Below are positions 2,824 through 35,168 of a DNA stretch of 64,000 nucleotides, piece by piece. The notes under the pieces are model-generated. The model was not told where the DNA came from. It searched no databases and was given only the letters and a program-made list of their open reading frames with translations. The DNA comes from a virus. Positions within the stretch are counted from its first letter, which is position 1; the number at the start of each line of letters is the position of its first letter. The stretch spans positions 26,919 through 90,918 of IMG/VR virus record IMGVR_UViG_3300008266_000018; one strand, written 5' to 3'. Made by a program: the position numbers and the translations under genes.

Positions 2824-3060
2824 ATGAGTGTATATTTAACTTGGGGAGAAAATCAAACTACTTTTCATAGAGAAGACTTAATTAGATATTTAATTAATAA
2901 AGATAAAATTGCTACATCTAAATTATGCGGCGAATGTAAAATATTTGATAATCATAAAGAAAAATGCACCCATCCATCGTTTGGGTGCGAAAGCAATCCC
3001 ATAAGGTTTAGACCTTGGGAAAGTGAAGCTATATGTCCTAAGAAAATTAAGCCTTCGTAA
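2824..3060 (+). CDS. Small Cys-rich hypothetical protein
   Basis: CGEC..C..C..CP pattern; directly follows the large gene. Confidence 0.55.
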   Translation: MSVYLTWGENQTTFHREDLIRYLINKDKIATSKLCGECKIFDNHKEKCTHPSFGCESNPIRFRPWESEAICPKKIKPS

Positions 3061-11695: not shown

Positions 11696-14225
11696 CTTTC
11701 TTTATTTCTGATAGTTTTGTATAAATTTTATTTGTTTGCACTGCTATTACGTCGGCAAACACGCATCCATCTTTCTTTTTGCCACGAATAACAACAATGT
11801 CGCCTTTCTTAGGAGTCTTTTTATTTATATCAAGAAAATCTTCAAGTTTCTTATTGAACATTTTCACGTTTATTATATTACTTTCATCAAAAATATCCAT
11901 CGTCATGTATTTATTACCAGCTTTAGATGTGCGCGTTTCAGAATCGTCAGAAAGTCTTCCGATAAATCGCACTTCATAGTTTTCTGGCAGTCCGTTAATA
12001 TCATCTATCAATTCCAAGATGACATCTGATTGATCCATGACGATATCCTTTAAATTAGAGCCATAAGTATAACCAAGTAGTTTATTCTCATAAAACCAAT
12101 TAGCGAACTTCTCGGACTTCTTGTTCTTATCGTAAATCTCCGCATATCTTTGAGACTTATTTTTGATAGTTTCAATTCTTGAAGGTTTGATTAAAAGCTT
12201 TCCTTTTTCATCTACTTTCTCACAAATATACTTCATTGTTTTGACAAGATCATAATCAAATCCCGCGCCATAATTAATGCAATATCTCTTTTCCTTCTCA
12301 GTAAGAGTATTCCAAAGTTGAGCTTCATAGACGACCTTGGTTCTAGTCTGCTTAAAGCCTTCCAATGCTCCAGCTTGAATTAAAGCGCACAATATGCCAA
12401 GATTCAATCCAGCTTCATTTGCAGTGTTAAAGATCTCAAACTTATTTTGAAATATGCCGATAAAGTTATTAAGCTTCTCAATAGATTTATCTGAAATGCC
12501 TTTGATAGAAAGAAGACCAAATCGAATATTGTCTCCTTGAATACTAAAGTCTTTTTGAGATTTAAGTAGATGAGGGGGCAGTAATTCAATATTAAAATGC
12601 CGCATCTCTTTGTGAATTTTAGAAATCTCAGAAATCGGATCAGGTTCATGTCGAGTCATCTTCAACAACGACAAGAAGAACTGCTGCGGATATTTAAATT
12701 TAAGATATACTGTAATTGCAGCTAGAGCGGCATAACAAGCTGAATGCGATTTGTTGAAAGAGTAGTTCGCAGAGTCTTCAAGAACTTTCCATAGAATATC
12801 GCCAGCTTCTTGAGGAAGCTTATTTTCAACTATCTTATCTTGAATCTTCTGCTTCCACTTCTTAACCTCTTCGACTTTCTTTTTACCTACAATGCGGCGA
12901 AGAATTTCTGCTTCGTCCAAAGAGAAACCAATCTTTGTAGACATTTTCATCAACTGCTCTTGATATAGAGCAACGCCGCCAGTCACCTTTAGAACGTCAT
13001 CAAAGAGAGAGTGAATGCTCTCGTATGTTTCTGTATTGGTATAAAGAGCGTACTTATCGACGAATTGAAGCGCACCGGGACGCGCAAGAGCCAGAACGCC
13101 GCTAAGTTCTTCCAGATTCTTAGGCTTTACCTTCTTTAATACTTTAAAGTTAGTATCAGCTTCAATTTGGAATAATCCATGAGGAGTTCTCAGGTCTTGA
13201 AGACTCTGATAAATACAAGAATCATTTACATCGATATCTAGCAGATTAATACCGATATTCTTGCATACGTCATCTACAACTGAAACGCCACGAAGACCTA
13301 GAATATCAAGTTTGATATTAAATAATGTAACCCAGTTCATGTCAAATGATGACACGATGCTTCCGTCAGAAGATCTTTCTGTTGGGCAAGATTCTAGGAT
13401 ATTATCATAACAAAGTAGAACTCCAGAAGGATGTGCGCCTTTATTTTTAATTAGATCTTTTAACTTCCTAGAAACAGAATATATTCTAGGATTTTCGTCG
13501 CACCAGTTCTTGAATTCCTCTACTTCGGCATAAGCTTCTTCGACATCTTTGACCTGACCAAAGACTTTAGGAATCAAACCTGAAACTACTGTCATTTCAG
13601 ATTCAGGCTTCTCGTCGATAACCTTGCCGCATTCTTTAATTAGAAGTTTACTGCTAAGAGTGTTTAGAGTTAAGATTTTGGCGGTTTTGTTTTCGAACTT
13701 CTTTTCGAGGTACTCCAAAACTCTATGCCGCTGATAGTAACATATATCAAGATCAACGTCACACATAAGAGAACCGTCGAGATAGGTGATACCATTGACA
13801 ACATTTTTCTTTGCGCGAAATCTTGAAATAAAACGTTCAAAAAATAGTCCATATTTAAGAGGATCGATTTGAGTTACTCCACATGCGAATAGAATTAAAC
13901 TTCCTGCGGCAGATCCACGACCTACGCCAGTGGGAATGCTATTATCTTTACAGAAGTTGATTACATCCCAAACCAGTAGTAGATAATCCGTAAAGCTGAG
14001 TTCCTCTACGATTTCTAGCTCATAATTTAATCTATTTATATATTCTTGAGAGAATAGATTTTTTTCTTTTAGTCCGTATTCGCATAAAGACTTTAAGAAT
14101 GAAAGATTGGAGCAATCAAGATCTGCGCCAATTTTGTTCTTAAACTTATCTTCAATTTTAAATGAAGGTAGTCTTACGCCATGTAGCTCAAGCTTTAAAT
14201 CAGAAAAATTATCGTAAAAATTCAT
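11688..14225 (-). CDS. dnaE: DNA polymerase III alpha (DnaE-type) polymerase core, lacking the PHP domain
   Basis: GRGSAAGS, FERF, DVDLD, HPSG, KLDILGL, YQEQ, YSFNKSH, C-terminal OB fold. Confidence 0.95.
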   Translation of the reverse strand: MNFYDNFSDLKLELHGVRLPSFKIEDKFKNKIGADLDCSNLSFLKSLCEYGLKEKNLFSQEYINRLNYELEIVEELSFTDYLLLVWDVINFCKDNSIPTGVGRGSAAGSLILFACGVTQIDPLKYGLFFERFISRFRAKKNVVNGITYLDGSLMCDVDLDICYYQRHRVLEYLEKKFENKTAKILTLNTLSSKLLIKECGKVIDEKPESEMTVVSGLIPKVFGQVKDVEEAYAEVEEFKNWCDENPRIYSVSRKLKDLIKNKGAHPSGVLLCYDNILESCPTERSSDGSIVSSFDMNWVTLFNIKLDILGLRGVSVVDDVCKNIGINLLDIDVNDSCIYQSLQDLRTPHGLFQIEADTNFKVLKKVKPKNLEELSGVLALARPGALQFVDKYALYTNTETYESIHSLFDDVLKVTGGVALYQEQLMKMSTKIGFSLDEAEILRRIVGKKKVEEVKKWKQKIQDKIVENKLPQEAGDILWKVLEDSANYSFNKSHSACYAALAAITVYLKFKYPQQFFLSLLKMTRHEPDPISEISKIHKEMRHFNIELLPPHLLKSQKDFSIQGDNIRFGLLSIKGISDKSIEKLNNFIGIFQNKFEIFNTANEAGLNLGILCALIQAGALEGFKQTRTKVVYEAQLWNTLTEKEKRYCINYGAGFDYDLVKTMKYICEKVDEKGKLLIKPSRIETIKNKSQRYAEIYDKNKKSEKFANWFYENKLLGYTYGSNLKDIVMDQSDVILELIDDINGLPENYEVRFIGRLSDDSETRTSKAGNKYMTMDIFDESNIINVKMFNKKLEDFLDINKKTPKKGDIVVIRGKKKDGCVFADVIAVQTNKIYTKLSEIKKDE

Positions 14226-20499: not shown

Positions 20500-20926
20500 A
20501 ATTAATAAAATCTTTTAATGATAAAATAGGCTTCTTTATTTTAATATCTTCGCCTACTTTAGTTTCAGAGAGTATGACATCTTGCTTTGAGAAGTCAAGA
20601 GTCTTTTTCTTAGTTTTCACAAATTCTGCCCATTCATTTTTAACGAACAGATCATGCTGATACTTTATTATATCTTGATTTTCCTTCTTTATAAAGAAGC
20701 TTAAAGAAGATACTTTATCATTGGGAAGAGATTCCCAGAACTTTTGATCTAAACATATTTTACCAAGAGTGTTTGCTATCTTCATCTCTCTTGGATAATT
20801 AATAGTTTTTTTATCAGCTATAAATAAATCAATTAAATAAGTCGCGAAGCTTTGAAAGATTATTTCTTCGCCATTAACTGTTTTTGTATACTTCTTTTTC
20901 GATGAATTCAATAATTTCTTTGTCAT
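20492..20926 (-). CDS. Hypothetical protein
   Basis: ORF overlapping its neighbours in the operon. Confidence 0.55.
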   Translation of the reverse strand: MTKKLLNSSKKKYTKTVNGEEIIFQSFATYLIDLFIADKKTINYPREMKIANTLGKICLDQKFWESLPNDKVSSLSFFIKKENQDIIKYQHDLFVKNEWAEFVKTKKKTLDFSKQDVILSETKVGEDIKIKKPILSLKDFINYG

Positions 20927-21650
20927 TCTTTTTAGGATCTTTAGTCCAGAAAACTTGCAAATATTCTGAGTCTAAGTAAGGATTAATGAAAAATTTATCT
21001 CTAGTTTCATCAGGAAAATCTCCTACAATTAAATAAGTAGGTATTTTTTTAACTAGAGCCATTGTTTTAATTGAACTGTCAACAGCAATTACTTTTTTAC
21101 AAAGCTGAATATGACTTAAGCTAACCCAAATATCAGGGTGAGCTACAAGGCATACATTAGGCAACTCTTTGAGATTGTCAAACTCTAAAACTTCTTTCTC
21201 GCTGCCAAAAATTAAATAATTTTTATTAGGCTTTATTATTTTCTCAACGCATTCTTTAGAAATTCTTTTTTCAGGAAAATTAAGCTGGTTGTATGCGTTT
21301 TTAGCAAATCCACTGCCAAATGGATGTATTCCAATTATTTCGTTATCGTTATCAAAAGGAGACTGCACCTCGTAAGGAAATGCAGTCTCCATAAACTTTG
21401 TTCTTGGGCAAATAGTTAAATTAGATTTATTTAAAGAAGAAGAAGCTTCTGAATAAGAAGATAAATCATCGAAGTAAATAAATTCATAATTTTTAGTATC
21501 ACAAAAAGGCGCAAAGAACTTTTCCGCGCCTTTAAAGTGAGTCATTACAATAACTTTGAAAGAAGAAGGAAGACAAACTGCAACGTCAAGACATTGCAGA
21601 AAGTCTCCAATTCCGCCAGATATTAATATACTATTTACCTGATTGGACAT
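20874..21650 (-). CDS. GT9-like glycosyltransferase
   Basis: GGIGD, IGIHPFGS, VIAVDSS; likely start MSNQ. Confidence 0.75.
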   Translation of the reverse strand: MSNQVNSILISGGIGDFLQCLDVAVCLPSSFKVIVMTHFKGAEKFFAPFCDTKNYEFIYFDDLSSYSEASSSLNKSNLTICPRTKFMETAFPYEVQSPFDNDNEIIGIHPFGSGFAKNAYNQLNFPEKRISKECVEKIIKPNKNYLIFGSEKEVLEFDNLKELPNVCLVAHPDIWVSLSHIQLCKKVIAVDSSIKTMALVKKIPTYLIVGDFPDETRDKFFINPYLDSEYLQVFWTKDPKKNDKEIIEFIEKEVYKNS

Positions 21651-23611
21651 GCACCAGAAGAGCATTCTGCCATATCTAGCATTTCATTGCTATTGATGGT
21701 CATATTTGACAAAGGCTTGACCTTGCTGCTTGCAGCAAGATATGTGGCTTCGTCAATTTCTTGATATGGAGCTTGCTTGAAGCCGTGATCCTTGAATAGA
21801 AGGAAGCTAACACTCTTAACGTTATGCTCGTAATTATCTTTTAGCCAAGTCTTTAGAGACTCAAGTTCTTCAGGCTTGTAATAAGCAGTTACAGAAACAG
21901 CGTTGTCAGACCAAATTGTTTGAAGCTTCTTTACCATATCCAACTGCTTCAATACGTCCATATCCTTTGTAAGAATAGATCCTTCAGGAGTTTTGCACGG
22001 GAAGTAGACTACAACAGTATCACGATTTTCAGTACCATCAAAGTTTACAAGGAATTCAACGTGATATCCCATGTCTTTGCATGTTTGAACGAGAGCGTCA
22101 GAACTAGACATACGAACAGTACGCATGTAATACTTGCTGAACGCTGGATGAACGCCGGGAGTTGCTCCTCCTAGAAGACTCAACGTACCAGAAGGCTTGA
22201 TAGTCGTGAGTTTAATGCTTTCGGGCCAGCCGCGAAGCTTGCTCCAAGACTTGTCAAAATCACGCAAAGCGATATAACAATCGTCAAGCCAATCAAGCTT
22301 ATCAAGAGACTGACAAACGCCAGTAACACCAAGACCAAGCCGCATGTTCTTGTGAACAATTTTATTAGTTTCTTCATGAATGAATGGAAGAGCAGCGATA
22401 GCCTTTTGAGTCTTATAAAGAAGCTTTGTGCAGTCGATTAGCTCTTCTTTCGAAGTAATGTTATTTAGATAAAGTTCAGAAAGATTGCAGCACTCGTAAT
22501 TAGAAAGACTAATTTCGGCGCAAGGATTGGTCATTTCGCAATTATCTGCATCTGTTGGATACATTGAATTGTCTGAAATAGGACCATCCTTAATTCGCCC
22601 AAACTTTTGGGATAGAGGTAGATTAAAGAAACCATAAGGCTCGCCATTTGCATAGCCAGAATCCTTGTTGATTTCATATCCATTCTTCCAAAGTTCTTCA
22701 AGCACATGATCGTAGCTATCTGCGTAGATAGTATTGTTACTCATTGCTCGCCAATTTGGAACGTTACCAGAACCCCAGTTCTTGGCGCGAAGATAAAGAA
22801 TATCGTCAGGATCACCTAGAGCGATTTCAGCACTTCGACGAACATTGCCAGCAACAACAACGCTGCCAATAATGTTGCAGATATCAAGAACGTCAATTGA
22901 ACGAAGTTTCTTGTTTTCTCTTGACTGAAAGATTTTTGTGATTTTATCGATTCCGTCAATAAGGATTTGTGGGCCACTAGCCTTTCCGCCAAAACCCTTG
23001 ATTGGCTCTCCGTATCCTCTGATGAGGATAGTCGAGTAAGAAAACGATTTACCTGTGACGTAAAAAGCGTCCAATACCTTCGAAAGTAGATTAACCCAAC
23101 CTTCGCGTTTATCTGGAACAATATAATCAGCGTCTTTAGTTGCTTCATGAATGACATTTACACCTTTCTTAATCTTGGGAAGTTCGTGTACATCTTCGCG
23201 GCGAATGCTGTAACCAACTCCGCCGCCAAGCATTAGATTTTCAAACAAGAAAAGAAATGCCTTTGGCTCGCGCATTGCTGTTGCCCAGCAATTGAGAAGA
23301 GAATTTGCGCCAAAGCGATCTACGGTAGAAGTGCCAAGCTGCCAAAGCATTCGGCCAGCAAAGTTGCACTTTAAATTAAAAACGTAATCATAAATACGTT
23401 CTGCTTCTTCTGGAGTGTATTGAGCGCCAATCTTTTGTGCGCCTTCAATGCATCGTTGAACGGTCTCATACCATTCCTCTGTCTTGCCGTTATCCTTTAG
23501 ACGCGCATAAGTACGCTTATAAACGATATAACCTAGACCATTAAAACCCCAGTTGGGTTGTTTATTTTTATATTTAGATACAAAACTTTCAGTTAAAATT
23601 AATTCACTCAT
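21635..23611 (-). CDS. nrdJ: Class II (AdoCbl-dependent) ribonucleotide reductase
   Basis: KRTYAR, GNVRRSAEI, TNPCAEI, TTIKPSGT, C-terminal CSSGACPIR. Confidence 0.93.
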   Translation of the reverse strand: MSELILTESFVSKYKNKQPNWGFNGLGYIVYKRTYARLKDNGKTEEWYETVQRCIEGAQKIGAQYTPEEAERIYDYVFNLKCNFAGRMLWQLGTSTVDRFGANSLLNCWATAMREPKAFLFLFENLMLGGGVGYSIRREDVHELPKIKKGVNVIHEATKDADYIVPDKREGWVNLLSKVLDAFYVTGKSFSYSTILIRGYGEPIKGFGGKASGPQILIDGIDKITKIFQSRENKKLRSIDVLDICNIIGSVVVAGNVRRSAEIALGDPDDILYLRAKNWGSGNVPNWRAMSNNTIYADSYDHVLEELWKNGYEINKDSGYANGEPYGFFNLPLSQKFGRIKDGPISDNSMYPTDADNCEMTNPCAEISLSNYECCNLSELYLNNITSKEELIDCTKLLYKTQKAIAALPFIHEETNKIVHKNMRLGLGVTGVCQSLDKLDWLDDCYIALRDFDKSWSKLRGWPESIKLTTIKPSGTLSLLGGATPGVHPAFSKYYMRTVRMSSSDALVQTCKDMGYHVEFLVNFDGTENRDTVVVYFPCKTPEGSILTKDMDVLKQLDMVKKLQTIWSDNAVSVTAYYKPEELESLKTWLKDNYEHNVKSVSFLLFKDHGFKQAPYQEIDEATYLAASSKVKPLSNMTINSNEMLDMAECSSGACPIR

Positions 23612-25067: not shown

Positions 25068-26144
25068 TTAAATTAATGCTAAAAGTTGATCTACTGTTTT
25101 TTCATAAGTAAATTCAGTTTGGAGCTTTAATCCTTCTTCATTTACTCTGTTTTTTTCTACTCTTTTAATTACCTCTTCGCAACCAGCAATAAATTCATCT
25201 TCATTATAATTAAAATATTGACCTTGATTTATTTCTATTCCTTTCTTGAAGAATAGATTATCGTAGCAATCAATCTTATCTTTACTAGGATTAATTAATA
25301 CCGAGTTCTTTTCATTTGCCCAAGTTGAATGAGCATGAGCATTTAATATAACAGCATGTTTTCCAATCGCGACAGAAGAGAATTCAGGAATAGACCATCC
25401 TTCGCCGCTAGACATGCCAATAACTACATCGGCAGAATTAAGAAATTCATTGTAAGTCTTATTCTTTTCTATCCATTCAATGTTGTTATAATTAAAATAT
25501 CTATTTCCTTCAAGTGCGTCATTTATGATTTTAGCATTTAACTCTTTAGAAATAAAAGAATTATAGCAGCAAGATTGAAGTGAGTATTTTTTATTATTAC
25601 CAAACTTTTTAACCCAACTCTTAATTACTCTAACTTGATTCTTTCTGCGTTCGATTTTTCCGCAAACATTAAAAGTAATTCTTCCATCATCAAAAAACGT
25701 CTTGTTTAGATTTGAAAAAGTATTTGTATCAAATCCAAGAGGAACGAAATGAGTTTCTACGCCATGATTGTCGAAAACTTCTTTAGTGTATTTATTTGTA
25801 AAGACAGTTATATTTCCTTTAGCGACATTTTTCTCGTAGGTAGTTGGAGAGTCTAATTCATAGAATGAAATCAATATCTGCTTTTTAGATATAGATTCAT
25901 GACTTCCATTAAGATGCCAAAGTTTAATTACGGGAATATCTCTTGTATGAGATTCCTTATATTTAGAAATACATTTATTGATCCATTCTAAAAACTGTGG
26001 ATCATCTTCACAAGAAGAAACGTTGACGTTTCCAATTGGAAGTAAAGAAGGGGCCAGCCCCCTTCGGTAGATCTCTCTAAGAATTGCTAGAGATACTTGA
26101 CCGAAGGAGACTGGATTAATTGGGATGTTAAGAGCGAAATCCAT
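25068..26144 (-). CDS. GT4-like glycosyltransferase
   Basis: GKIERRKN, SSGEGWSIPEF. Confidence 0.8.
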   Translation of the reverse strand: MDFALNIPINPVSFGQVSLAILREIYRRGLAPSLLPIGNVNVSSCEDDPQFLEWINKCISKYKESHTRDIPVIKLWHLNGSHESISKKQILISFYELDSPTTYEKNVAKGNITVFTNKYTKEVFDNHGVETHFVPLGFDTNTFSNLNKTFFDDGRITFNVCGKIERRKNQVRVIKSWVKKFGNNKKYSLQSCCYNSFISKELNAKIINDALEGNRYFNYNNIEWIEKNKTYNEFLNSADVVIGMSSGEGWSIPEFSSVAIGKHAVILNAHAHSTWANEKNSVLINPSKDKIDCYDNLFFKKGIEINQGQYFNYNEDEFIAGCEEVIKRVEKNRVNEEGLKLQTEFTYEKTVDQLLALI

Positions 26145-26488
26145 TACAGGAGTCCGTCATCATCTTCCTGAACAGCATAAGTCTTCTTTACGGATGGCTT
26201 ATTTCCATAAGCTGGAGCCTTTGCTGTTGGAGCCGCCTTTTGAGGTGCGCTTGTTGTTGCGGTTGCAGGTCGTCCTTCCATAGGAAGCGACTCATAGATT
26301 CGAAAATCAGGTTGATTTTCAGACTTCTTATCTTTAGAAGAGAAGACTACAATCTTTACCTTCTCGCCATTTGCCTTGTTAATGTAACCAGTCAAGTATG
26401 TCTGGTTCTTACCTTGGCGTTTCCATAGAGCGCCGAGTTCTTCGCGTTTAGACTTATTAGCTGTATCGTTTGCGTTTGTATCACTCAT
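26144..26488 (-). CDS. DUF736-like small beta protein (possible SSB)
   Basis: LGALWK..YLTG..QPDFRIY; acidic tail EDDDGLL. Confidence 0.6.
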   Translation of the reverse strand: MSDTNANDTANKSKREELGALWKRQGKNQTYLTGYINKANGEKVKIVVFSSKDKKSENQPDFRIYESLPMEGRPATATTSAPQKAAPTAKAPAYGNKPSVKKTYAVQEDDDGLL

Positions 26489-27083
26489 ATATTTCTAATT
26501 TACGGTTCTTTATCTTTCTTTTAAGAAGACTTATTCCTTTTTTGTGAAGATTCAAAACTGTTTGCGTTGTAACTCCGAGTTCTTCCGCAATGTTTTTCCA
26601 CTTCACTTTATAATCAGAATACTTCCTCTTGAAAACGTATGAAATTCTATCATCAGAGACATCTGAAAATGCAGTTAAAATATTTTCTAAATTTACTTTA
26701 ACAGGCTTTTTTCGATAAGCCTCCATTGAGATTTCAGAATCTATGATAGGGGAAATTTCCTCATTGTCAACAAAGAATTTGTTTTTCGTGTTCGAAATCC
26801 TGTTCAGGCAATGGAATCTAGCTTGGTTCGCGAGCCAAGTAGAAAACTTAACATTTTTATCAGCGTCGAAAGAAGACAATGAATTATAAAATACGAACAT
26901 CTTATCAGATAAAATATCTTCACTTGATACTCCTGATCTCTTTAGTCCGTTCATATATCCATGACACACTTTATAATACAAGTTTTCGTGCCTTGAAACC
27001 AGTTCGCAAAATGCATCGTTGCAAGTTTCTTCGTTTATTAGCTTGATTAACTCTACGTCTGATAACTTATTTAAGTTTTTCAT
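26481..27083 (-). CDS. Phage RNA polymerase sigma70-family factor
   Basis: FDADKNVKFSTW (region 2); IAEELGVTTQTV (region 4 HTH). Confidence 0.85.
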   Translation of the reverse strand: MKNLNKLSDVELIKLINEETCNDAFCELVSRHENLYYKVCHGYMNGLKRSGVSSEDILSDKMFVFYNSLSSFDADKNVKFSTWLANQARFHCLNRISNTKNKFFVDNEEISPIIDSEISMEAYRKKPVKVNLENILTAFSDVSDDRISYVFKRKYSDYKVKWKNIAEELGVTTQTVLNLHKKGISLLKRKIKNRKLEIYE

Positions 27084-27700
27084 TTTAAATGTAAATCAAG
27101 GATGCACTGATTTACAAATAAGTCAAGCACTTTAATATCAGAAACTTTGGGCCAAATTACATAGTAATCAGCATCTTCTCTAACTTTAGGATAATGAAAC
27201 GATTCTTCTTCGTTTGGTGGCTGAACTTTTACGCCATTTTTTGGATTATAACATGAAACATCAATCAAGCGACCTTTTAAAACGTGCTTCAACCAAAATA
27301 CTTCATCTTTAGAAAAATAGTTATGACGTATATCGGTTATGCAAATGTATTGAGACTTAGATTCCAAGATCTTCTTAGTTATAATATCTGTCCAAAACTT
27401 TCCATACGATTCCAATCTCTTTTGCTTCGCAAAAAGAACGAGATCGTTTCTAACCAAGTCCTTCTCTTCTCGCGTACAATTCAAAATGTCAACATTGTAT
27501 TTTTTAATAAGGTCTTCCCTTAGAAGAATTTTCAATTCATCTGCTAGGGCGAATCTTTCGAACGGTAGTTTCTGCGATAGCAGAGAGAAGAACGTATCCT
27601 TTCCACTACTGGCTACGCCAGACAATCCAAGGATTGTACGAGAACCGAGATTTGATTTATTAAGTTTTGACATGCAACCAACGCTGGAAAAGGAATCCAT
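27080..27700 (-). CDS. Deoxynucleoside monophosphate kinase
   Basis: GLSGVASSGKDT, LADELK, ITDIR. Confidence 0.8.
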   Translation of the reverse strand: MDSFSSVGCMSKLNKSNLGSRTILGLSGVASSGKDTFFSLLSQKLPFERFALADELKILLREDLIKKYNVDILNCTREEKDLVRNDLVLFAKQKRLESYGKFWTDIITKKILESKSQYICITDIRHNYFSKDEVFWLKHVLKGRLIDVSCYNPKNGVKVQPPNEEESFHYPKVREDADYYVIWPKVSDIKVLDLFVNQCILDLHLK

Positions 27701-27735
27701 CTCTAATATGTATTTATATTAGATCATAAACGACA

Positions 27736-28017
27736 TTATTCAAGCCAAATCAGTTCTTCGCAACCTATTTCGTAGGCTTTCGACCCTATTTCGTAGAGCC
27801 TAGCTAATGACTTGAATAAATATTTACCGCCAAAATCCGATTGAACTTTTTTTATTGCTCGCCTCACCGACTAGGTGAGTCTATCGATCTCGTCTTACGA
27901 ACGCCGCTTTTTCCCGAAATAACGTTGAAGTTCTTAGCTTCACTTGATCGATGCCTTTCTACGGGCCTGATGTCTCTTACGGTTCACGCTGGATTCCCAG
28001 CAAGCTAGTAATCGGTT
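27736..28017 (-). ncRNA. Unidentified highly structured RNA or 5' leader
   Basis: GC-enriched non-coding gap with many nested helices; G-U pairs form on the - strand; promoter directly upstream. Confidence 0.7.
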
Positions 28018-28023
28018 GTCGTG

Positions 28024-28052
28024 ACCTTAGTCCTCCTTAGAAGATTTGTCAA
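28024..28052 (-). promoter_or_regulatory. Sigma70-type promoter for the structured RNA and downstream genes
   Basis: TTGACA-17-TAAGGT. Confidence 0.7.
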
Positions 28053-28449
28053 CCTCTTTTTTCAAAAAATCTAAAATGTGCAAAATGTTCCACAAATCCT
28101 TGGGTTTTAGCTCTTTTGGATCGCACGTTTCCGAGTCGTCCTTGATGACTTCTTGGCAGAACCAATTTACTCTGTCCGCGATATTGCAAGCAAGTGCGCC
28201 ATTAATTTTAATATCTTGCTCCATCTGCTCCAACTTTCTATTTAAAAAATAAATCTTCTCTCCGTCAGGATTAGATTCGCAAGCTACAAAATTTTCAGAC
28301 AATAAATTATTCAACGCGCAAACAACTGGGTATTTGTCGTTGTCATCCTCATGGATAACCAAAAGTTTATTTAAATCCTTCGGGTAATTAAAATAATCGT
28401 TTTCAGAAAACCAGTTAATTAGTTTTAAAGATGCTTCTAAAGTAGTCAT
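28027..28449 (-). CDS. Hypothetical protein
   Basis: 140-aa ORF. Confidence 0.6.
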   Translation of the reverse strand: MTTLEASLKLINWFSENDYFNYPKDLNKLLVIHEDDNDKYPVVCALNNLLSENFVACESNPDGEKIYFLNRKLEQMEQDIKINGALACNIADRVNWFCQEVIKDDSETCDPKELKPKDLWNILHILDFLKKEVDKSSKED

Positions 28450-28458
28450 AATAGTAAA

Positions 28459-28776
28459 ATGAATTTAATATTGATATCTATAGTTATCGGTTATTTAACT
28501 TTTATCTGGTTAAAAACAAACGCTATATACGATTATACAAGCTGGATATTAAAGAAGACTAATATTTTTAAAGAATACGAAGACTTTATTGAACAAAAAC
28601 AAATGAATTTAAGTTTGCCTGATTATTTATTATTAAAGAAGAAATCTTTCTTTTTTAAATTAATCACATGCCCTATATGCTGCTCGTTTTGGATGAGCAT
28701 GATATATTACAGGTCAATCGAAGGAGTTTGCGCCGCATGTTTTTCTTATTTAATTTATAAACTTTTAATTAAATGA
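28459..28776 (+). CDS. Small membrane protein with CxxC (DUF1360-like)
   Basis: Hydrophobic segments; LITCPICCSFW. Confidence 0.6.
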   Translation: MNLILISIVIGYLTFIWLKTNAIYDYTSWILKKTNIFKEYEDFIEQKQMNLSLPDYLLLKKKSFFFKLITCPICCSFWMSMIYYRSIEGVCAACFSYLIYKLLIK

Positions 28777-29060
28777 AAATTAAATTAGACTATTTTTTTA
28801 ATTTCGTAAAGAATAATCCAGCACACTTTTCAGTGTTAGACCCTGAGATTGCAAAACTATACGACATGAACATATCATCATGCAATTGTGCAACTCCAAA
28901 AGGGCAACTAACAACAGCATTTGAACAATTCAAAAAAGTGCTATGTATTGAAAATTGTAGGAACAAAATTCTTGACAAATCAAAGGAGTTATTAGATGAT
29001 TCTATACAGATAGAAGATTTCAGTGTAAATACTTGTGGTGAAAACTTTCAAAATAAATAA
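28773..29060 (+). CDS. Hypothetical protein
   Basis: ATGA overlap with the previous gene. Confidence 0.55.
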   Translation: MKIKLDYFFNFVKNNPAHFSVLDPEIAKLYDMNISSCNCATPKGQLTTAFEQFKKVLCIENCRNKILDKSKELLDDSIQIEDFSVNTCGENFQNK

Positions 29061-29220
29061 TTTAAAAATGAAAGTAACTGGTCAGAAGCTTGTCATTTAT
29101 GATTCTTTAAATGACGTTTCTGACGAAGAAGTTTTATTAATTGCCAATTATCTTTACAACGAAGGATTCTTTAAAACCAAAAAAATAGATGTACGAGTCC
29201 AAGGTGATAGAAAAAATTAA
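29035..29220 (+). CDS. Hypothetical protein
   Basis: YLYNEGFF; GTGTAA motif upstream. Confidence 0.5.
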   Translation: MVKTFKINNLKMKVTGQKLVIYDSLNDVSDEEVLLIANYLYNEGFFKTKKIDVRVQGDRKN

Positions 29221-29404
29221 TTATTTCTACGAAGAATTAGATAGCTTAAATCAAAGCTTAGATTGGCTAGAGAAAAAAATAGAAGTAACAACTTCTGAAG
29301 AAGATTTATTATATTTATATACTCAAGTAGTAGAAGAACAAAAAAAGCATGAACTGTTAACTAGAGAATTTATGGCACACTTAGCCATATTGTCTCAGCA
29401 GTGA
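29189..29404 (+). CDS. Hypothetical coiled-coil protein
   Basis: ORF in tandem arrangement. Confidence 0.5.
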   Translation: MYESKVIEKINYFYEELDSLNQSLDWLEKKIEVTTSEEDLLYLYTQVVEEQKKHELLTREFMAHLAILSQQ

Positions 29405-29457
29405 GTCAGATAGTCTCAAATAAAGCGTCTAAATATGAAATATAACCATGAAAAAGT

Positions 29458-29473
29458 TGGCATGAATCTTGCT
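29458..29473 (+). promoter_or_regulatory. Sigma54 (-24/-12) promoter
   Basis: TGGCAT-GAATC-TTGCT; exact TGGCAY-N5-TTGCW spacing. Confidence 0.75.
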
Positions 29474-29500
29474 ATAGAAATAAATAACAAGGAAAACAAT

Positions 29501-29812
29501 ATGGTATTAAATTATTATTACGACGCAACAAAAAACTACTACTTCAAACAAGATGGATCAGACTATGTAGTCTCCATTGATGTGCCGGGAATTAAAAAAT
29601 CAGAATTATCAATCACGATAAATAAAGAAGAACAAGATAATCTTCTGTCTATTAAAACGCAAAATAAAGACAGAGATTACAGTCAAAATTTTAGAGTGTC
29701 TGGCAAGTTTGATGAAAAATCAGTGAAGGCATCACTTTCTGAAGGAGTATTAAAAATAAAAATGAAGCTGAAAGAGGAAGCTTCAACGAAACATAAAATA
29801 GAAATTGAATAA
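29501..29812 (+). CDS. Small heat-shock protein (Hsp20)
   Basis: IDVPGIKKSEL, KASLSEGVLKI, KIEIE. Start at 29501 follows AAGGA and the sigma54 site. Confidence 0.88.
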   Translation: MVLNYYYDATKNYYFKQDGSDYVVSIDVPGIKKSELSITINKEEQDNLLSIKTQNKDRDYSQNFRVSGKFDEKSVKASLSEGVLKIKMKLKEEASTKHKIEIE

Positions 29813-29817
29813 AAAAT

Positions 29818-29843
29818 AACCCTCGCCAAACGGCGGGGGTTTT
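29818..29843 (+). terminator. Intrinsic terminator
   Basis: AACCCTCGCC-AAAC-GGCGGGGGTT followed by T's. Confidence 0.75.
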
Positions 29844-29857
29844 GTGTAATATTTTGT

Positions 29858-30073
29858 ATGCCTATTCCTAAACCGTCAAAGAAAAACCAAAACGAAGACA
29901 AGTATATTGGCGACTGTATGGGGGATTCAAGTATGTTAAAAGAATTCCCCAATCAGAAGCAAAGATATGCTGTATGCAAAACTACTTTTGATCGCGCCAA
30001 GAAAGCTAAAGCTTCAGAAGATGAAGATATAAATTGGGTTGACAATCAAGAAAAGGGTTATATATTGTATTGA
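29858..30073 (+). CDS. Small phage hypothetical protein
   Basis: MPIPKP..E..YI..CM...QRYAVC. Confidence 0.6.
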   Translation: MPIPKPSKKNQNEDKYIGDCMGDSSMLKEFPNQKQRYAVCKTTFDRAKKAKASEDEDINWVDNQEKGYILY

Positions 30074-30687
30074 TGCTGCTTACGAGCAAAGTCTTTACTC
30101 TGTGCCTTAATAAAAGCTGGATTCCCATCGGGACAAAGTGCGTTTCTGAAGCAGTATCTTGCCTGTATTCAGGAGATTATCAAGCGCTTTATATTCAAGA
30201 AAACGGTAACGAACCGATCTTCGAAGTTTTATCTTGGGAAGATTGGGTGAGAATTCCTGTCTCTGAAAATGACATAACTATCTCATCTGTAAAACTCACC
30301 ATCAAAGTTCCTACAATTATTATTTGTAAAAATTACAATGCAATTCCTATGCTTGAAGTTAAGCTGAACAGCGATAGGATTGCAGAGAGAGATAATTATA
30401 CTTGTCAATATTCTGGGCGCAAATTTACTCCAGAAGAAGTCAAAAAGAAAGCTTCAATTGATCACATTATTCCAAGATCAAGAGGAGGAAAAGATTCTTG
30501 GGATAATTTAGTTCTTTGCGATAAAGAAATTAATTCAATGAAGTCTAATAAGACTCCAGAAGAAGCGGGGCTTAAATTAATTAGAAAGCCTTCTTTAAAG
30601 CCGTACAAAGTTCCATATCAATCTTCTATTAGAAATATTAACCATTACTCATGGAAGCATTTTATAATAGAAAAGAATGAACAATAA
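30070..30687 (+). CDS. HNH endonuclease
   Basis: RDNYTCQY, IDHIIPRSRGG..WDNLVLC..N..K. Confidence 0.9.
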   Translation: MMLLTSKVFTLCLNKSWIPIGTKCVSEAVSCLYSGDYQALYIQENGNEPIFEVLSWEDWVRIPVSENDITISSVKLTIKVPTIIICKNYNAIPMLEVKLNSDRIAERDNYTCQYSGRKFTPEEVKKKASIDHIIPRSRGGKDSWDNLVLCDKEINSMKSNKTPEEAGLKLIRKPSLKPYKVPYQSSIRNINHYSWKHFIIEKNEQ

Positions 30688-30970
30688 ATCTCAAGAGAGA
30701 TCCCATAAGCAAATAATGAAGTGCGTCAAAGAGCTTTCAGAAAGTTACGACACAGTTCAGATTTTTTTAACAAGACACGTTGATGTAAGTAAAAATATTG
30801 AAGATACTGAATCTCTTTATTTTGGGATAGGAAATAAATTTGCAATTTACGGCCAAGTTAGAAATTGGTTGTTGACAGAAGAGAAAAAGATGCTAAACAT
30901 AGCTGACCTAGAATTCGACTCTGAATTTGGAGGAGAAGACGAGGACGACGGAACAGAAGAAAAAGAATAA
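30677..30970 (+). CDS. Hypothetical protein
   Basis: ORF with acidic tail. Confidence 0.55.
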   Translation: MNNKSQERSHKQIMKCVKELSESYDTVQIFLTRHVDVSKNIEDTESLYFGIGNKFAIYGQVRNWLLTEEKKMLNIADLEFDSEFGGEDEDDGTEEKE

Positions 30971-30971
30971 T

Positions 30972-31397
30972 ATGAACATTCAAATTAAGAAATTGTCTGA
31001 TAAAGCTAAGATTCCAACTCAAGGATCAAAGTATGCTGCTGGTTATGATTTGTATGCAGCAGAAGAAGTTCTTGTAAATACAATGGGAAGAAAGTTGGTA
31101 AAAACCAATATTTCTATTTCAATTCCTGAAGGATATTATGGGCGCATTGCTCCTCGTTCAGGTCTAGCTTATAAGAATGGAATCGATGTTTTGGCTGGAG
31201 TTATCGATTCTGATTATCGCGGCGATATTGGAGTTATTCTTTTTAATACAGATCATAATCTTGATTTTGAAGTTAATGTTGGCGACAGAATCGCGCAAAT
31301 TATTATTGAAAAGTGTCATTCTGCAAATTGGGAAACTGTTGAGACTCTTGATGCCACCGTTCGATCTGAAGGTGGATTTGGAAGCTCAGGAGTTTAA
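30972..31397 (+). CDS. dut: dUTPase (trimeric)
   Basis: AGYDL, PRSGLA, GVIDSDYRG, RIAQ, GGFGSSG. Confidence 0.95.
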   Translation: MNIQIKKLSDKAKIPTQGSKYAAGYDLYAAEEVLVNTMGRKLVKTNISISIPEGYYGRIAPRSGLAYKNGIDVLAGVIDSDYRGDIGVILFNTDHNLDFEVNVGDRIAQIIIEKCHSANWETVETLDATVRSEGGFGSSGV

Positions 31398-31400
31398 AAT

Positions 31401-31943
31401 ATGTCAAGGCATGCTAATCTTCCATTTCATCTTTACGTCAAAGTAAGCAATAAATATCTTGGCGCGGAAATGCCAGATGGTTATACAGAAGCTATTTGGC
31501 ACGGAGTTTTTGGAAGATTTAATCAGGTTTTATCCTGCCATGTCTTGTTAGAAAGTGGAGCGCATTGGAGCGGCTTGCCAATTCAAGCAATATCTACAAA
31601 AAATAATTATTCTCATTCTTCTAACATTTTAATGCCTTGGGCAACTATGGGAGAAGAAATAGACTGCATTCATTTTAAATACTTAGAAGGTATTGAGTGC
31701 GAAACTAGAGAAGTAATAAAAACTCCAGCTAGACATACAGGAATAATCATAGACTGGAAAGATGGTTTTAGTAGATATCCGCAAGAACACAAGCCGCTCA
31801 ATTTGATTGAATTAGAAAATGGTCAATTTGCTTTATACCCAAATAACTATCTTTATTTCAAAGACGCTCATTTTATTTCAGATGAAGCTAAAAGTAATTT
31901 AAAATTTTACAAGCGAAACGAAGAAATATACTGGGGAAATTAA
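31401..31943 (+). CDS. Phage hypothetical protein
   Basis: LESGA.W..LPI, EHK...L.NGQFALYPNN. Confidence 0.6.
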   Translation: MSRHANLPFHLYVKVSNKYLGAEMPDGYTEAIWHGVFGRFNQVLSCHVLLESGAHWSGLPIQAISTKNNYSHSSNILMPWATMGEEIDCIHFKYLEGIECETREVIKTPARHTGIIIDWKDGFSRYPQEHKPLNLIELENGQFALYPNNYLYFKDAHFISDEAKSNLKFYKRNEEIYWGN

Positions 31944-31944
31944 A

Positions 31945-32328
31945 ATGCTTAGAATAAAAACAAAATTAGATAAAAGCCAAATCGCTGGAATTGGAGTTTT
32001 CACTGACGAAGATATTCATGAAGGACAAATTATATGGAGTATGAATAATCTTTCTGTCTTTAGAATAACTTCCGAAGATTATAAATCTCTTTCCGAAGAA
32101 GAAAAAAATTTTATAGAAGAAAAAGATTACTATTGGATCGACAGCGATGGAAGCTATATGATTCCATTAGATGACAGCAGATTTATAAATCATTCTGAAA
32201 GTCCAAATGTTATAGATAAAAATGATTATTTAACTATTGCAGCTAGAAATATTAAAAAAGGCGAAGAGTTAACTATGAATTATAGGACATTAGTTAGTGA
32301 AGAATATTGGAAACCTTATTTTAAATGA
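31945..32328 (+). CDS. SET-domain protein
   Basis: GIGVF, RFINHSESPN, IKKGEELTMNY. Confidence 0.9.
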   Translation: MLRIKTKLDKSQIAGIGVFTDEDIHEGQIIWSMNNLSVFRITSEDYKSLSEEEKNFIEEKDYYWIDSDGSYMIPLDDSRFINHSESPNVIDKNDYLTIAARNIKKGEELTMNYRTLVSEEYWKPYFK

Positions 32329-32825
32329 GACTTAATAAAATTGAATATGGTTTTTATCTTGCTCTTGCGTCTAGGGCAAGATCTGAAGATCGTCAAACTC
32401 AGACAGGATGCGTACTTTTTGATGAAAACTGGCGCACAATTGGCACTGGTTTCAACGGATTCGCGCCAAAATTCGTTCCAACCGAAGATGTTTTTGAAGA
32501 TCGCTCTTTCAAATCTGAAATTATTTGTCACGCAGAAATTAATGCTATTCTTAATAGCTCAAAAAACGCTAAGTATTTATTTTCAGTATTAAGTCCATGC
32601 GTATCTTGCGCCAAAACAATTGCCGCCACATCAATCAAAGAAGTTTATTTTATTAAACAATATCATAAAGCTGGCGCAGAAGCTGACATGAAGTACGCCA
32701 AAATCTTTGATTTATATGGAATAAAAGTTTTTCAAATTTCTAAAGATAGTCTTTCAAATATAGAAAAAGTAATGAAACAAGAAGTAGAAAATATTAAAAA
32801 TTTATCTTTGGATCTTGAGTATTAA
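32325..32825 (+). CDS. dCMP deaminase
   Basis: RSED..TQTG, GFNG, HAEINA, SPCVSC. Confidence 0.9.
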   Translation: MRLNKIEYGFYLALASRARSEDRQTQTGCVLFDENWRTIGTGFNGFAPKFVPTEDVFEDRSFKSEIICHAEINAILNSSKNAKYLFSVLSPCVSCAKTIAATSIKEVYFIKQYHKAGAEADMKYAKIFDLYGIKVFQISKDSLSNIEKVMKQEVENIKNLSLDLEY

Positions 32826-32840
32826 AACGTAATATATTAC

Positions 32841-33125
32841 ATGAAGGATCAAAGGAAAGATGATTCGCTTCTTAACCTTTGTAAGGTACTAGATACTGAT
32901 TACATAGATTATGGAGGCAAAATCACTCGTTGGCTTGATCCTGATGCTGACTACAATGACTGTAGCGACGGGTGTAAGTATTTTATTCCTTTACACAATG
33001 AGTCGTATAAAGGAGCAGATTTGGATTTCGGAGTATGCACAAATCCAAAAAGTAAAAGGTGCGGATTGCTTACAAATGAACATCAAGCAGGATATGGATG
33101 TTTTGAAATAGAAAAATTAAAATAG
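32841..33125 (+). CDS. Cys-rich hypothetical protein
   Basis: DCSDGCKYF..DFGVCTNP..EHQ.G.GC. Confidence 0.6.
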   Translation: MKDQRKDDSLLNLCKVLDTDYIDYGGKITRWLDPDADYNDCSDGCKYFIPLHNESYKGADLDFGVCTNPKSKRCGLLTNEHQAGYGCFEIEKLK

Positions 33126-33130
33126 ATTTT

Positions 33131-33204
33131 GAGAGTATAGCTTAATGGTAAAGCGCGATTTTTCCAAATTCGACATGGATGTTCGATTCAACCTACTCTC
33201 TCCA
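33131..33204 (+). tRNA. tRNA-Gly(UCC), atypical
   Basis: GAGAGTA/TACTCTC acceptor plus TCCA; loop TT-TCC-AA; one mismatch each in the anticodon and T stems. Confidence 0.75.
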
Positions 33205-33231
33205 TCTTCTAAAAATAAACATCTAATTTAT

Positions 33232-33307
33232 TGGGGGTTCGTATAATGGATCATTACTGTCGCCTTTGAAGCGATAAATGGGGTTTCGATCACCTCACCC
33301 CCAACCA
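33232..33307 (+). tRNA. tRNA-Gln(UUG)
   Basis: TGGGGGT/ACCCCCA acceptor, GTCGC-CTTTGAA-GCGAT, encoded CCA. Confidence 0.88.
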
Positions 33308-33315
33308 ATTTTAAA

Positions 33316-33510
33316 ATGCAAGAACACGAAATTATACTAAAAGAACTAATTGAAAAGCTGAAAACAGTTGATGTAAATAAGACCGCTCCATACCTAGTCA
33401 AAGAAATAGATAAACACGTTCAAGAAGCTTACTCTCAAATTTATAAAGCTAGAGAGCAAAAAACAGTGTATAATCCTCTAGTTTATGATAAAAAAGGACA
33501 CTGCTGCTAA
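33316..33510 (+). CDS. Hypothetical protein
   Basis: Short ORF. Confidence 0.45.
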   Translation: MQEHEIILKELIEKLKTVDVNKTAPYLVKEIDKHVQEAYSQIYKAREQKTVYNPLVYDKKGHCC

Positions 33511-33673
33511 AATATCCACGCCATGTACAAAGCAATGCCGTTTAGTAGGAGCAATTAGATGTTATGGATGCGGAAGAACTTGGCAGCAAATTAAAAACTG
33601 GTCATTCTACTCTGAAGAAGAACGTATTGAAATAATAAAAAATTTGAAAAAGCCAGTTTTCGACGATATATAA
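33485..33673 (+). CDS. DUF1289-like Cys protein
   Basis: STPC...C.....CYGCGRT..QI..W. Confidence 0.75.
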   Translation: MIKKDTAAKISTPCTKQCRLVGAIRCYGCGRTWQQIKNWSFYSEEERIEIIKNLKKPVFDDI

Positions 33674-33678
33674 AATAT

Positions 33679-33813
33679 ATGTCAGCAGGTAAAGGCGATA
33701 AACCCAGAAATTGTTTTAGTAGTAAATATAAAAATAATTACGACGACATAAATTGGGGTGATAAAAATAAGACTTTAAAAAAGAAGAAAAATTCTAATAA
33801 TAAAGTCAAATGA
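33679..33813 (+). CDS. Small phage peptide (not in ORF track)
   Basis: MSAGKGDKPRNCFSSKYKNNYDDINW..., 44 aa; fills the gap. Confidence 0.6.
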   Translation: MSAGKGDKPRNCFSSKYKNNYDDINWGDKNKTLKKKKNSNNKVK

Positions 33814-35168
33814 AGAATCTTTCAATTATTTTTATCTCACTTCTTGTAGCTTTTACAGCTATAAGCATTAAAGCCAAAAGTCAATCTAAAGCTCAAACTA
33901 AGTTTCCAGACTTCGGCTTTATGGTTCCGCCCAGCGAAGTCACAAATGTTAATGAAGTTTTTAAACTAAGTCAGGATTACCCGAAGAGCCTTCCAAAGAA
34001 CAAGCTTCCTAAATTTTACAGCATAGATTATAAAACTAATTGGCGCGAATATCTACTTTCTGTACGAGATTACTGTTTTGAAGGAAATACAAATGTAGAT
34101 TTTCGAGTTGAGAATAATAAGGCTCGAAATTGGTATCACATGCCTTTCCAACATTATTCTGCAAATGGCCGAGAAGGGTTTCACGGATTAACCAAGGAAG
34201 CGCCAGTTAAGGCGCATCAACTCGCTATTTCGCAAGAATACGCCACATCTGGCGCGTGGGCAGTAGGCTTCTTTAATGACGTAGCTGGATATACAATTGG
34301 TCAAGTTTGGGCTGATCATGAAAACCCAGATGTCACCCTTATGAAGGGAGGATTTAAACATGGTGCAGTATTGTTTAAGCTATTGTTTACTTCTATTCCA
34401 AAAGACGTAGCTGAAGCCACAGTTCCATTTTTCCGCAACGGAATTTGGTGGGACGCTTATGCAACATATAATTTTAATAGTTCAGACCGTTCAAAAATTC
34501 AAGTTGTATTAACCCAAATGGACATTATGGTTCGTGATGATAATGCTCCTAACGGTTGGGTATTTGGCAATTTCCAATATAATGGCGCAGTAAATAATCC
34601 TATTAAGTGGAATAATCTAGTTCCAGTAGGTTTGATGTGGGGCCAAGATCCTACAAATAATGTAGATTTCTCTAATCCATATCCAACAAACACGATTATT
34701 AATACAGCTTTGAAGGAAACTATTATTAATCCTGATAGAAACGAGCTTCCTCCTACGCATCTTGGCTGGAATGGTCGTTTAAATGGCCCTCTTGATAACT
34801 CTATGAGTTCTTGTTATAGCTGCCATTCAACGGCTGAATATCCTCAAGGATCTCCTATCAGTCCATTGTTTGATCCAGTTCTTTCTAAGAAATATCCCCC
34901 CGGCAGCGATGGTTGGATGCTTTGGTTTAGAAATCTAAAGTGCGCTCAGTCTTTTGATAAGTCAACTTACGCTAAACCTCATTATTCAACTGACTTCTGT
35001 TTACAAATGTCAGAAGCTCTTGAGAATTTCGTAAATTGGAAAGCTGCACAAGGCGGTCTTTATCGCAAGGATTATGATAAATCTTCAAATAATTTCCTTG
35101 AACTTCGAAATGGAGAGATTAACCTTAGAGAAGGTAAGATCTACCCTGTAGATCGTCGAAATAAATGA
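33810..35168 (+). CDS. Secreted protein with a CxxCH haem-c motif
   Basis: Signal peptide; SSCYSCHSTA. Confidence 0.65.
   Translation: MKNLSIIFISLLVAFTAISIKAKSQSKAQTKFPDFGFMVPPSEVTNVNEVFKLSQDYPKSLPKNKLPKFYSIDYKTNWREYLLSVRDYCFEGNTNVDFRVENNKARNWYHMPFQHYSANGREGFHGLTKEAPVKAHQLAISQEYATSGAWAVGFFNDVAGYTIGQVWADHENPDVTLMKGGFKHGAVLFKLLFTSIPKDVAEATVPFFRNGIWWDAYATYNFNSSDRSKIQVVLTQMDIMVRDDNAPNGWVFGNFQYNGAVNNPIKWNNLVPVGLMWGQDPTNNVDFSNPYPTNTIINTALKETIINPDRNELPPTHLGWNGRLNGPLDNSMSSCYSCHSTAEYPQGSPISPLFDPVLSKKYPPGSDGWMLWFRNLKCAQSFDKSTYAKPHYSTDFCLQMSEALENFVNWKAAQGGLYRKDYDKSSNNFLELRNGEINLREGKIYPVDRRNK

Follow-up and report, generated by a model that had tools for sequence, protein, structure and literature searches.

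A covariation-supported pseudoknot RNA family at the head of a sigma-factor operon in uncultured large phages

Introduction

To our knowledge, only a few cis-acting RNAs that control transcription elongation have been described (put, EAR and conAn2), and large phage-encoded riboregulators are rare. The put element is about 70 nt long and consists of two stem-loops, and EAR measures about 120 nt. In two accounts (PMC9378689, PMC8191782), put, which is phage-encoded, and EAR are presented as structured RNAs that follow an early or operon promoter and act without being translated, and put, EAR and conAn2 are all described as acting in cis at the head of long operons. In the conAn system, a small protein gene (ConAn1) is followed by a cis-acting RNA of 260-600 nt (conAn2) near the start of a long operon (PMC8191782). 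Conserved structured leaders and noncoding RNAs of phages are a general kind that is already known, and an intergenic screen of IMG/VR has yielded 10,006 unnamed candidate structured RNAs, with many motifs located upstream of particular genes (Fremin et al. 2023, PMC10690425).

The present analysis concerns a 64,000-nt stretch of viral DNA (IMG/VR record IMGVR_UViG_3300008266_000018, positions 26,919 to 90,918; hereafter the window), which derives from a large phage that carries rIIA/rIIB and tRNAs and is remote from all cultured phages. A sequence-only reading had proposed that a gap on the minus strand encodes a promoter-driven, structured RNA, either a novel noncoding RNA or a put-like leader, upstream of about 25 kb of co-oriented genes. 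Comparative analysis upheld a novel structured RNA with its own promoter, on the grounds of strong covariation, a conserved promoter and the lack of an Rfam match, while two of the proposed helices gave way to a pseudoknot. These sequence comparisons support well the view that the element belongs to a new phage RNA family characterized by a covariation-supported pseudoknot and a conserved promoter.

Like put and EAR, the window RNA lies just after a promoter, at the head of a long co-oriented block and on the same strand; unlike them, it is about 280-420 nt long, comprises two or three domains with a double pseudoknot, and has no Rfam match. The resemblance to conAn, in which a protein gene (here for a 140-aa winged-helix-like protein) precedes the RNA and the long operon, is one of gene order only: the window RNA belongs to a phage rather than a plasmid, has its own promoter, and lacks the upstream protein gene in a subgroup of seven sequences, and conAn2 is poorly conserved whereas the present family has more than 50 invariant positions. 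With orphan riboswitch candidates, raiA, GOLLD and ROOL, it shares a covarying multihelix fold, invariant junctions, a phage or metagenome origin and, in one lineage, an adjacent tRNA; unlike raiA, GOLLD and ROOL, it has no Rfam match and is tied to one operon, and it is much smaller than GOLLD and ROOL. The candidates of the IMG/VR screen have a data source in common with the present family and rest on a like kind of evidence. Pieces of the window RNA may be among them; the text of that paper mentions neither sigma nor kinase (PMC10690425).

Genomic setting and promoter

The main features of the locus, in the direction of transcription, are:

28027..28449, minus strand: 140-aa ORF upstream of the RNA, conserved in most lineages, with the promoter in its last codons
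28047..28052, minus strand: -35 hexamer TTGACA, within the last codons of the 140-aa ORF; TTGAC conserved in homologues
28024..28029, minus strand: -10 hexamer TAAGGT, 3/6 to consensus; T and A positions conserved in homologues
27736..28018, minus strand: structured RNA, defined by nhmmer and cmsearch homologues and by covariation (domain 1, 28017-27834; domain 2, 27819-27736)
27080..27673, minus strand: dNMP-kinase-like P-loop protein, first downstream gene (PHROG 139, 2.8e-9)
26481..27083, minus strand: phage sigma factor (Sigma70_r2 at 1e-8), which always follows the RNA (39/39 loci)

The 140-aa protein is acidic and falls in no Pfam or PHROG family; in its AF2 model (mean pLDDT 78.5), an N-terminal winged-helix-like domain precedes two long helices, with only weak PDB matches (MarR, TFIIE and eWH domains; best E 0.019). 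The sigma factor gene is followed by genes for a 114-aa protein, a glycosyltransferase, a GDP-mannose 4,6-dehydratase and a class II ribonucleotide reductase and, further downstream, for a UvsX-like recombinase, a DnaB-like helicase and a DnaE-like polymerase, with co-orientation extending to about position 3000, so that the proposed block of about 25 kb of co-oriented ORFs was indeed found. A divergent gene junction occurs 400 nt from the element itself. The replicative polymerase (11688-14225, minus strand) is of the DnaE-like (Pol III alpha) type; its identity to the nearest GenBank phage proteins is only about 26%, and the phage lineage is without a cultured relative. Within the same block, a 14-bp GC-rich hairpin followed by UUUU occurs at 21358-21390 (minus strand) inside a 263-aa ORF (20874-21665) and could represent an internal terminator-like or regulatory hairpin of the operon.

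The gap extends over 326 nt to the first ATG (27700) and 353 nt to the kinase start at 27673. The latter is conserved; the in-frame ATG at 27700 is not conserved as a start, and in L001 and L038 a 1-nt indel causes a frameshift between the two. The AUG of the motif AGAGAUG (27698-27700 in the window; UUG in some lineages) is itself conserved, with a frame that closes after 5-45 codons in relatives, and may mark a short upstream ORF or simply be RNA sequence. As the sequence-only reading had remarked, the gap is GC-rich, with a GC content of 0.42-0.44 vs about 0.30-0.34 in the flanks.

The proposed minus-strand promoter, TTGACA-17-TAAGGT, is present as described, its -10 hexamer overlapping the TAA stop of the 140-aa ORF. 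In a MAFFT alignment of 39 homologues, conservation of TTGAC and of the TA in the -10 hexamer is complete or reaches at least 90%, whereas the spacer of 17-18 nt varies freely. The -10 hexamer reads TATAGT in L006, TAGGAT in the L155 group, TATTAT in L160 and TAAAAG in L037, at a spacing of 17-18 nt, and the L160 promoter (TTGACA-17-TATTAT) matches consensus at 11 of 12 positions. Because the window's -10 hexamer matches at only 3/6, a simple promoter scan omits it. The TTGACA motif is retained in the subgroup that lacks the upstream 140-aa ORF, which points to promoter conservation beyond coding conservation alone. In every lineage, the 5' strand of helix P1 begins 5-10 nt past the -10 hexamer, which fits a transcript beginning there; for the window, we infer an RNA start at about 28016-28019, near the 5' end of P1. 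These motifs are best explained as a promoter, located where the 140-aa ORF ends, that would be read by the host sigma-70-type polymerase.

Homologues and known RNA families

Relatives were retrieved from IMG/VR starting with the kinase protein, three invariant strings were run as exact DNA patterns, and candidates were confirmed with an nhmmer profile. By exact patterns, nhmmer and cmsearch, 45 distinct homologues were found in IMG/VR and JGI metagenome contigs (loci are denoted by L numbers). The 15-mer GCGAAGAACTGATTT was discarded as a DNA search pattern, being too unspecific (>111 matches, mostly by chance). An exact-pattern scan of one genome each from 185,579 bacterial and archaeal species gave no match, nor did blastn searches of 50,697 GenBank phage records that took the window element or a distant family member as query, nor a tblastn search of the sigma factor against GenBank phages.

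Divergence within the family is considerable. In L001, the kinase protein is 81% identical and the gap about 93% identical (mean column identity of 92% over an aligned stretch that includes short flanks), and the few changes in the gap are compensatory. L006 has a kinase of only 51% identity, yet about 85% is retained along the aligned gap, with other hairpins in place of those of the window.

All 39 members with downstream sequence (39/39) carry the RNA on the same strand as, and 30-250 nt upstream of, either kinase followed by sigma or sigma alone; the gene order is kinase, sigma, 114-aa protein and glycosyltransferase. In one subgroup of seven sequences, the RNA stands directly before sigma, with no 140-aa ORF upstream. 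Since sigma follows with or without the kinase in between, the constant neighbour is the sigma operon, away from which the RNA is never found in the 39 loci. Homologues upstream of kinase and sigma genes were thus recovered as the sequence-only reading had proposed, and their covariation proved strong in both domains (scores of 0.385 and 0.508, each well above shuffles, as detailed below).

A covariance model of the domain-1 core, R1, was built from 13 close sequences and used to align 43 members (32 distinct); the nested helices in this alignment are biased towards R1, and the pseudoknots are absent from R1. The window scores 164.8 bits over positions 1-130 of 130, by construction since it belongs to the seed, and independent members score 89-105 bits. 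A second, weak R1 match (20.9 bits, E 0.002), which may be due to chance, lies at L163:9948-10074 (minus strand), about 200 nt upstream of the true copy and inside the homologue of the 140-aa ORF.

The RNA had been judged to resemble none of tmRNA, RNase P, SRP RNA, 6S RNA or a riboswitch, and its novelty was retained in comparison with known families. A cmscan of positions 27600-28200 against the families of Rfam 15, among them, where represented, EAR, GOLLD, ROOL, raiA, wcaG and manA, gave 0 matches at E<=10; the whole window, at gathering thresholds, gave only 3 tRNAs, all elsewhere; and the homologous loci L001-L004 gave only noise at E<=1. ARAGORN, applied to 26000-34000, found only two tRNAs at 33131-33307 and no tRNA or tmRNA in the element. 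A literature search with the invariant strings retrieved no relevant paper.

Fold of domain 1

Domain 1 contains the following elements, all on the minus strand and listed 5' to 3':

28010..28017: P1 5' strand AACCGAUU, which closes domain 1 by pairing with 27834-27842
28002..28005: 5' strand of pseudoknot PK-a, GCUU, with its partner AAGC at 27906-27909 in the P5 loop
27988..28001: P2 hairpin GCUGG-GAAU-CCAGC, 6/6 pairs compensatory, 100% paired
27955..27977: near-invariant single-stranded or pseudoknot segment AGAGACAUCAGGCCCGUAGAAAG, from invariant alignment columns
27946-27952 with 27883-27889: P4, AUCGAUC/GAUCGAU, covarying; it encloses P3, P5, the P5 loop and P6
27926-27942: P3, UGAAG/CUUCA, 5/5 pairs compensatory
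27921-27925 with 27901-27905: P5, CGUU/GGCG, two compensatory pairs and a U.G to C.A change
27906-27920: P5 loop, 15 nt, invariant, proposed partner of both upstream pseudoknot segments
27890-27900: P6, UCG/CGA, present in some lineages only
27863..27879: P7, variable hairpin CUCACC-UAGUC-GGUGAG, with compensatory variants in L001 and L038
27834..27842: P1 3' strand AAUCGG(A)UU, covarying

Comparison among lineages reveals extensive sequence replacement with retention of pairing. The P1 pair of the window, AACCGAUU/AAUCGGUU, corresponds in other lineages to CGUUCGAUU/AAUCGAACG, AUCGGCU/AGCCGAU and AGUUCUUUGUCU/AGACAAAGAACU, so that the sequence is wholly different while the pairing is always kept. 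P4 occurs as UACAGUC/GACUGUA, UACAAAC/GUUUGUA, CCAAUC/GAUUGG and AUCAACC/GGUUGGU, and the U.G pair of P5 is replaced in the L155 group by C.A, the isosteric change. P7 is GCCACC/GGUGGC in L001 and ACUACC/GGUGGU in L038, and a 60-nt stem-loop takes its place in other lineages. Over the domain-1 core in the R1 alignment, 95.8% of 1139 cells form standard pairs, and 19/36 pairs are changed on both sides. The covariation score is 0.385 vs 0.199 +/- 0.009 in shuffles (0/500 reach the observed value), and it falls to <=0.10 when partners are slid by 1-3 columns.

Seven helices of the sequence-only reading (P1, P2, P3, P4, P5, P7 and, in domain 2, P8) were confirmed by covariation. Its UCGU/ACGA helix survives as P6 in the shorter form UCG/CGA and in some lineages only. 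Its ACU/AGU helix is contradicted by L006, which carries AGU on both sides. The proposed GCUUG/CGAGC helix is not supported either: L212 and L218 carry an altered 3' partner, which other lineages lack, and GCUU instead covaries with AAGC in the P5 loop, a pairing that is better supported. The latter helix, PK-a, has the general form GCYU/ARGC and lies outside the model used for aligning. At its third pair, 21 sequences have C-G and 11 have U-A, with 100% pairing and no unpaired cell; those with U-A belong to three separate lineages (the window type, L156 and L189).

A candidate second pseudoknot, PK-b, would join CCCG.AGA (27965-27958) to UUU.CGGG in the P5 loop (27913-27919). These segments are pairable in 100% of sequences and never vary except for A/G opposite U (CCCG.ARA), which makes PK-b plausible. 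As PK-a and PK-b both cross P4 and P5, the core would form a double pseudoknot around the 15-nt invariant loop. In all, more than 50 positions are invariant across the family.

Domain 2 and the 3' hairpin

The 3' part of the element, again on the minus strand, comprises:

27736..27819: domain 2, supported by covariation on a plain MAFFT alignment not fitted to structure
27808-27819 with 27736-27747: P8, UUAUUCAAGUCA/UGGCUUGAAUAA, 12/13 pairs compensatory, which closes domain 2
27782-27800: P10 hairpin, covarying, with a variable loop
27764-27776: P11 hairpin, covarying, missing in the L037 subgroup
27703..27722: AU-only hairpin CUAAUAU-N6-AUAUUAG, with the conserved AGAGAUG immediately after it

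Domain 2 retains two invariant segments, UAGCUAGGCU and UGCGAAG.A.UGA. Its covariation score is 0.508 vs 0.211 in shuffles (0/500 reach it), obtained in a run that, like the domain-2 model R2, carries mis-set pairs for the short helix P9; the intended P9 pairs, G20-C64 and C21-G63 in alignment A12, are invariant. The window scores 88.7 bits over positions 1-89 of 89 of this R2 model, again by construction as a seed member. A three-way junction is the best explanation of the comparative data. Two other interpretations were considered and rejected: a hammerhead-like domain (CUGA...GAAA), in which, judged by eye, the junction strands are wrongly ordered and P11 is dispensable, and twin CGAAA hairpins serving as a dimer site or as iterons, which is contradicted by loop variation and by the lack of P11 in one subgroup, the twin CGAAA loops being no feature of the family. 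The AU-only hairpin that follows keeps its stem and varies in its loop within the window type; other lineages have a hairpin of different sequence at this place.

Strand and coding potential

Single-sequence folding gives z values vs shuffles of -2.0 for the minus strand and -2.2 for the plus strand. These values are modest and equal on both strands, so the case rests on comparative data rather than on thermodynamics. Over both domains, 187 G.U cells were counted vs 44 A.C cells, which identifies the minus strand as the folding strand and agrees with the earlier remark that several pairs are G-U on this strand and C-A on the other. The gap had also been said to hold no credible ORF, and accordingly no open frame crosses the element in any of 38 homologues, whose element lengths (290 to 364 nt) differ by non-multiples of 3.

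Variation among lineages

No terminator-like site is present in the window's gap, and the window's operon contains 15 such sites vs 10.0 +/- 3.3 expected, which is not an excess. Across lineages, neither a consistent terminator nor a consistent start-site-sequestering hairpin was found. In L160, a hairpin GCGUUC-UGC-GAACGC followed by U6 (L160:1095-1118) separates the RNA from the sigma start codon (1125) and leaves no room for a promoter before sigma, so that sigma expression would need read-through. This hairpin covaries in L037, L190 and L208, where the U tracts are poor. In L156, a tRNA-Gly(GCC) (L156:1310-1385) lies between the RNA and the kinase, followed at about 1400-1440, before the kinase, by a separate promoter-like motif resembling TTGACA-17-TATTAT. 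In loci of the L006 type, the kinase start codon and the conserved 3' module overlap.

A verbatim copy of the P7 3' strand (13-18 nt) is found 66-82 nt past domain 2 in all lineages except that of the window (L006:2500-2530, L155, L037:1370-1400, L156:1270-1290, L189 and others), whereas shuffled controls give a mean of about 6.5 nt. The two copies change in concert (AAAGUUGGCAGUCG, AAAGCUGGCAGUUC, AAAGCUGGUAAACG, AAAGGCUGACAGUCAA, GGAAGGAAGAAGUUAAA and AAAAGACUAGUGGUC), which is the pattern expected of alternative pairings or of a shared partner. In L006-type loci, this repeat is also coding sequence, specifying the first kinase residues.

Sister phages of the L003/L004 type have, in the same slot, the same TTGACA followed by about 300 nt and then by kinase and sigma, and this interval holds a different GC-rich element (L010:1240-1640, equal to L003; L004:2600-2979; L014, L015, L017, L019, L020 and L023; more distantly, L024 and L025). 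The sister element has compensatory pairs of its own and no Rfam match, and it probably represents a second new RNA family, as judged from these alignments. It was also considered as a diverged homologue of the window RNA, and this was rejected after nhmmer and three covariance models (one with filters off) found nothing. The relatives L002, L009 and L013 possess the operon without a long leader.

Possible functions

The preferred reading, although it falls somewhat short of an even chance, is that of a cis-acting leader controlling read-through or entry into the sigma operon. The host sigma-70-type polymerase would start the transcript at the end of the 140-aa ORF, and the two closed domains would fold, with the P5 loop pairing with two upstream segments as a double pseudoknot. 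The RNA would constitute the 5' part of a transcript that, as we infer, continues into the genes for the kinase, the sigma factor, the glycosyltransferase and replication; acting in cis while being made, it would set the level of transcription or translation into the sigma-factor operon, with the timing of the switch from host-sigma to phage-sigma transcription as the outcome. All 39 members lie on the same strand just upstream of this operon, no terminator-like site interrupts the window's gap, overlap between the 3' module and the kinase start codon is seen in the L006 type, the sigma factor of L160 appears dependent on read-through past the hairpin and U6, and related phages hold a different structured element in the same place.

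Several observations weigh against action in cis. Gene order is conserved throughout the lineage, so that the constant position is weak evidence for it; no terminator or start-site-sequestering hairpin is consistent across lineages; P1, at 8-16 bp, is longer than that of ligand-gated RNAs; and L002, L009 and L013 manage without a long leader. In addition, the tRNA and fresh TTGACA motif of L156, and the promoter and terminator-like site that bound the RNA in L160, would suit an independent transcript. Within the cis-acting reading, control of elongation or termination is favoured over ligand sensing: an effect on the elongating polymerase or on termination, by analogy with put, EAR and conAn2, may be proposed tentatively, and the sensing of a ligand or protein is a slightly weaker possibility. 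A correspondingly tentative proposal is that the double-pseudoknot RNA reprograms the host polymerase or senses a nucleotide-pool signal and thereby times the sigma and replication genes.

A possible alternative not far behind, though on balance doubtful, is a stand-alone, trans-acting RNA (a ribozyme, a component of an RNP or a factor-binding RNA) that simply occupies the leading position of the operon and would be set free by termination or processing. In L156, the tRNA straight after the RNA and the separate promoter-like motif of the kinase recall large phage RNAs that lie beside tRNAs; the RNA of L160 is flanked by a canonical promoter and a terminator-like hairpin; long helices close the two domains, and the invariant positions number more than 50; and the window type has no recognisable expression platform. 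Against this, none of the 39 loci has the RNA apart from the sigma operon, a terminator is absent from most lineages, the L006 type shows overlap of the 3' module with the kinase start, and the non-homologous element of relatives in the same slot suggests that the slot, not the RNA, matters.

Less likely again is a riboswitch-like sensor, whose core would bind a small molecule, such as a nucleotide or a nucleotide-sugar related to the kinase, ribonucleotide reductase or GDP-mannose genes, and gate expression. Junction and loop nucleotides are invariant whereas the peripheral hairpins (P2 and P7) vary, as is typical of aptamers, and the P7 3'-strand repeat changes in concert, as mutually exclusive pairings would. 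Yet the first regulated gene varies (kinase or sigma), the window type has lost the P7 repeat, the size of the RNA (300-420 nt) and its long P1 are atypical, and no ligand can be named.

That the element is not an RNA at all, being a DNA-level control region (operators or iterons of a divergent early region) or a small gene, is very improbable: its position 400 nt from a divergent gene junction, the two identical 12-mers CTACGAAATAGG in the window and the similar folding z (about -2) on both strands would fit this reading, but compensatory changes occur in at least 7 helices, only one strand pairs (187 G.U vs 44 A.C cells), the twin 12-mers are specific to the window type, with loops that vary and one hairpin missing in a whole subgroup, and a small gene is contradicted by the lack of any open frame and by lengths that are not multiples of 3.

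Implications

The comparative support for this RNA is unusually clean, comprising about 45 sequences, a covarying pseudoknot and a defined promoter, and the RNA occupies a critical position in the phage programme, immediately ahead of the sigma factor that the phage encodes. Its short length suits in vitro transcription, probing and structural work. Even if it proves to be merely a stable leader or an RNA with another role, it represents a new family that could be added to Rfam. The RNA could reveal how the passage from host to phage transcription is timed in large uncultured phages. Should it reprogram the host polymerase or sense a nucleotide-pool signal, as tentatively proposed, it would be a put-like or riboswitch-like device of new fold, with a second, unrelated fold doing the same job in sister phages.
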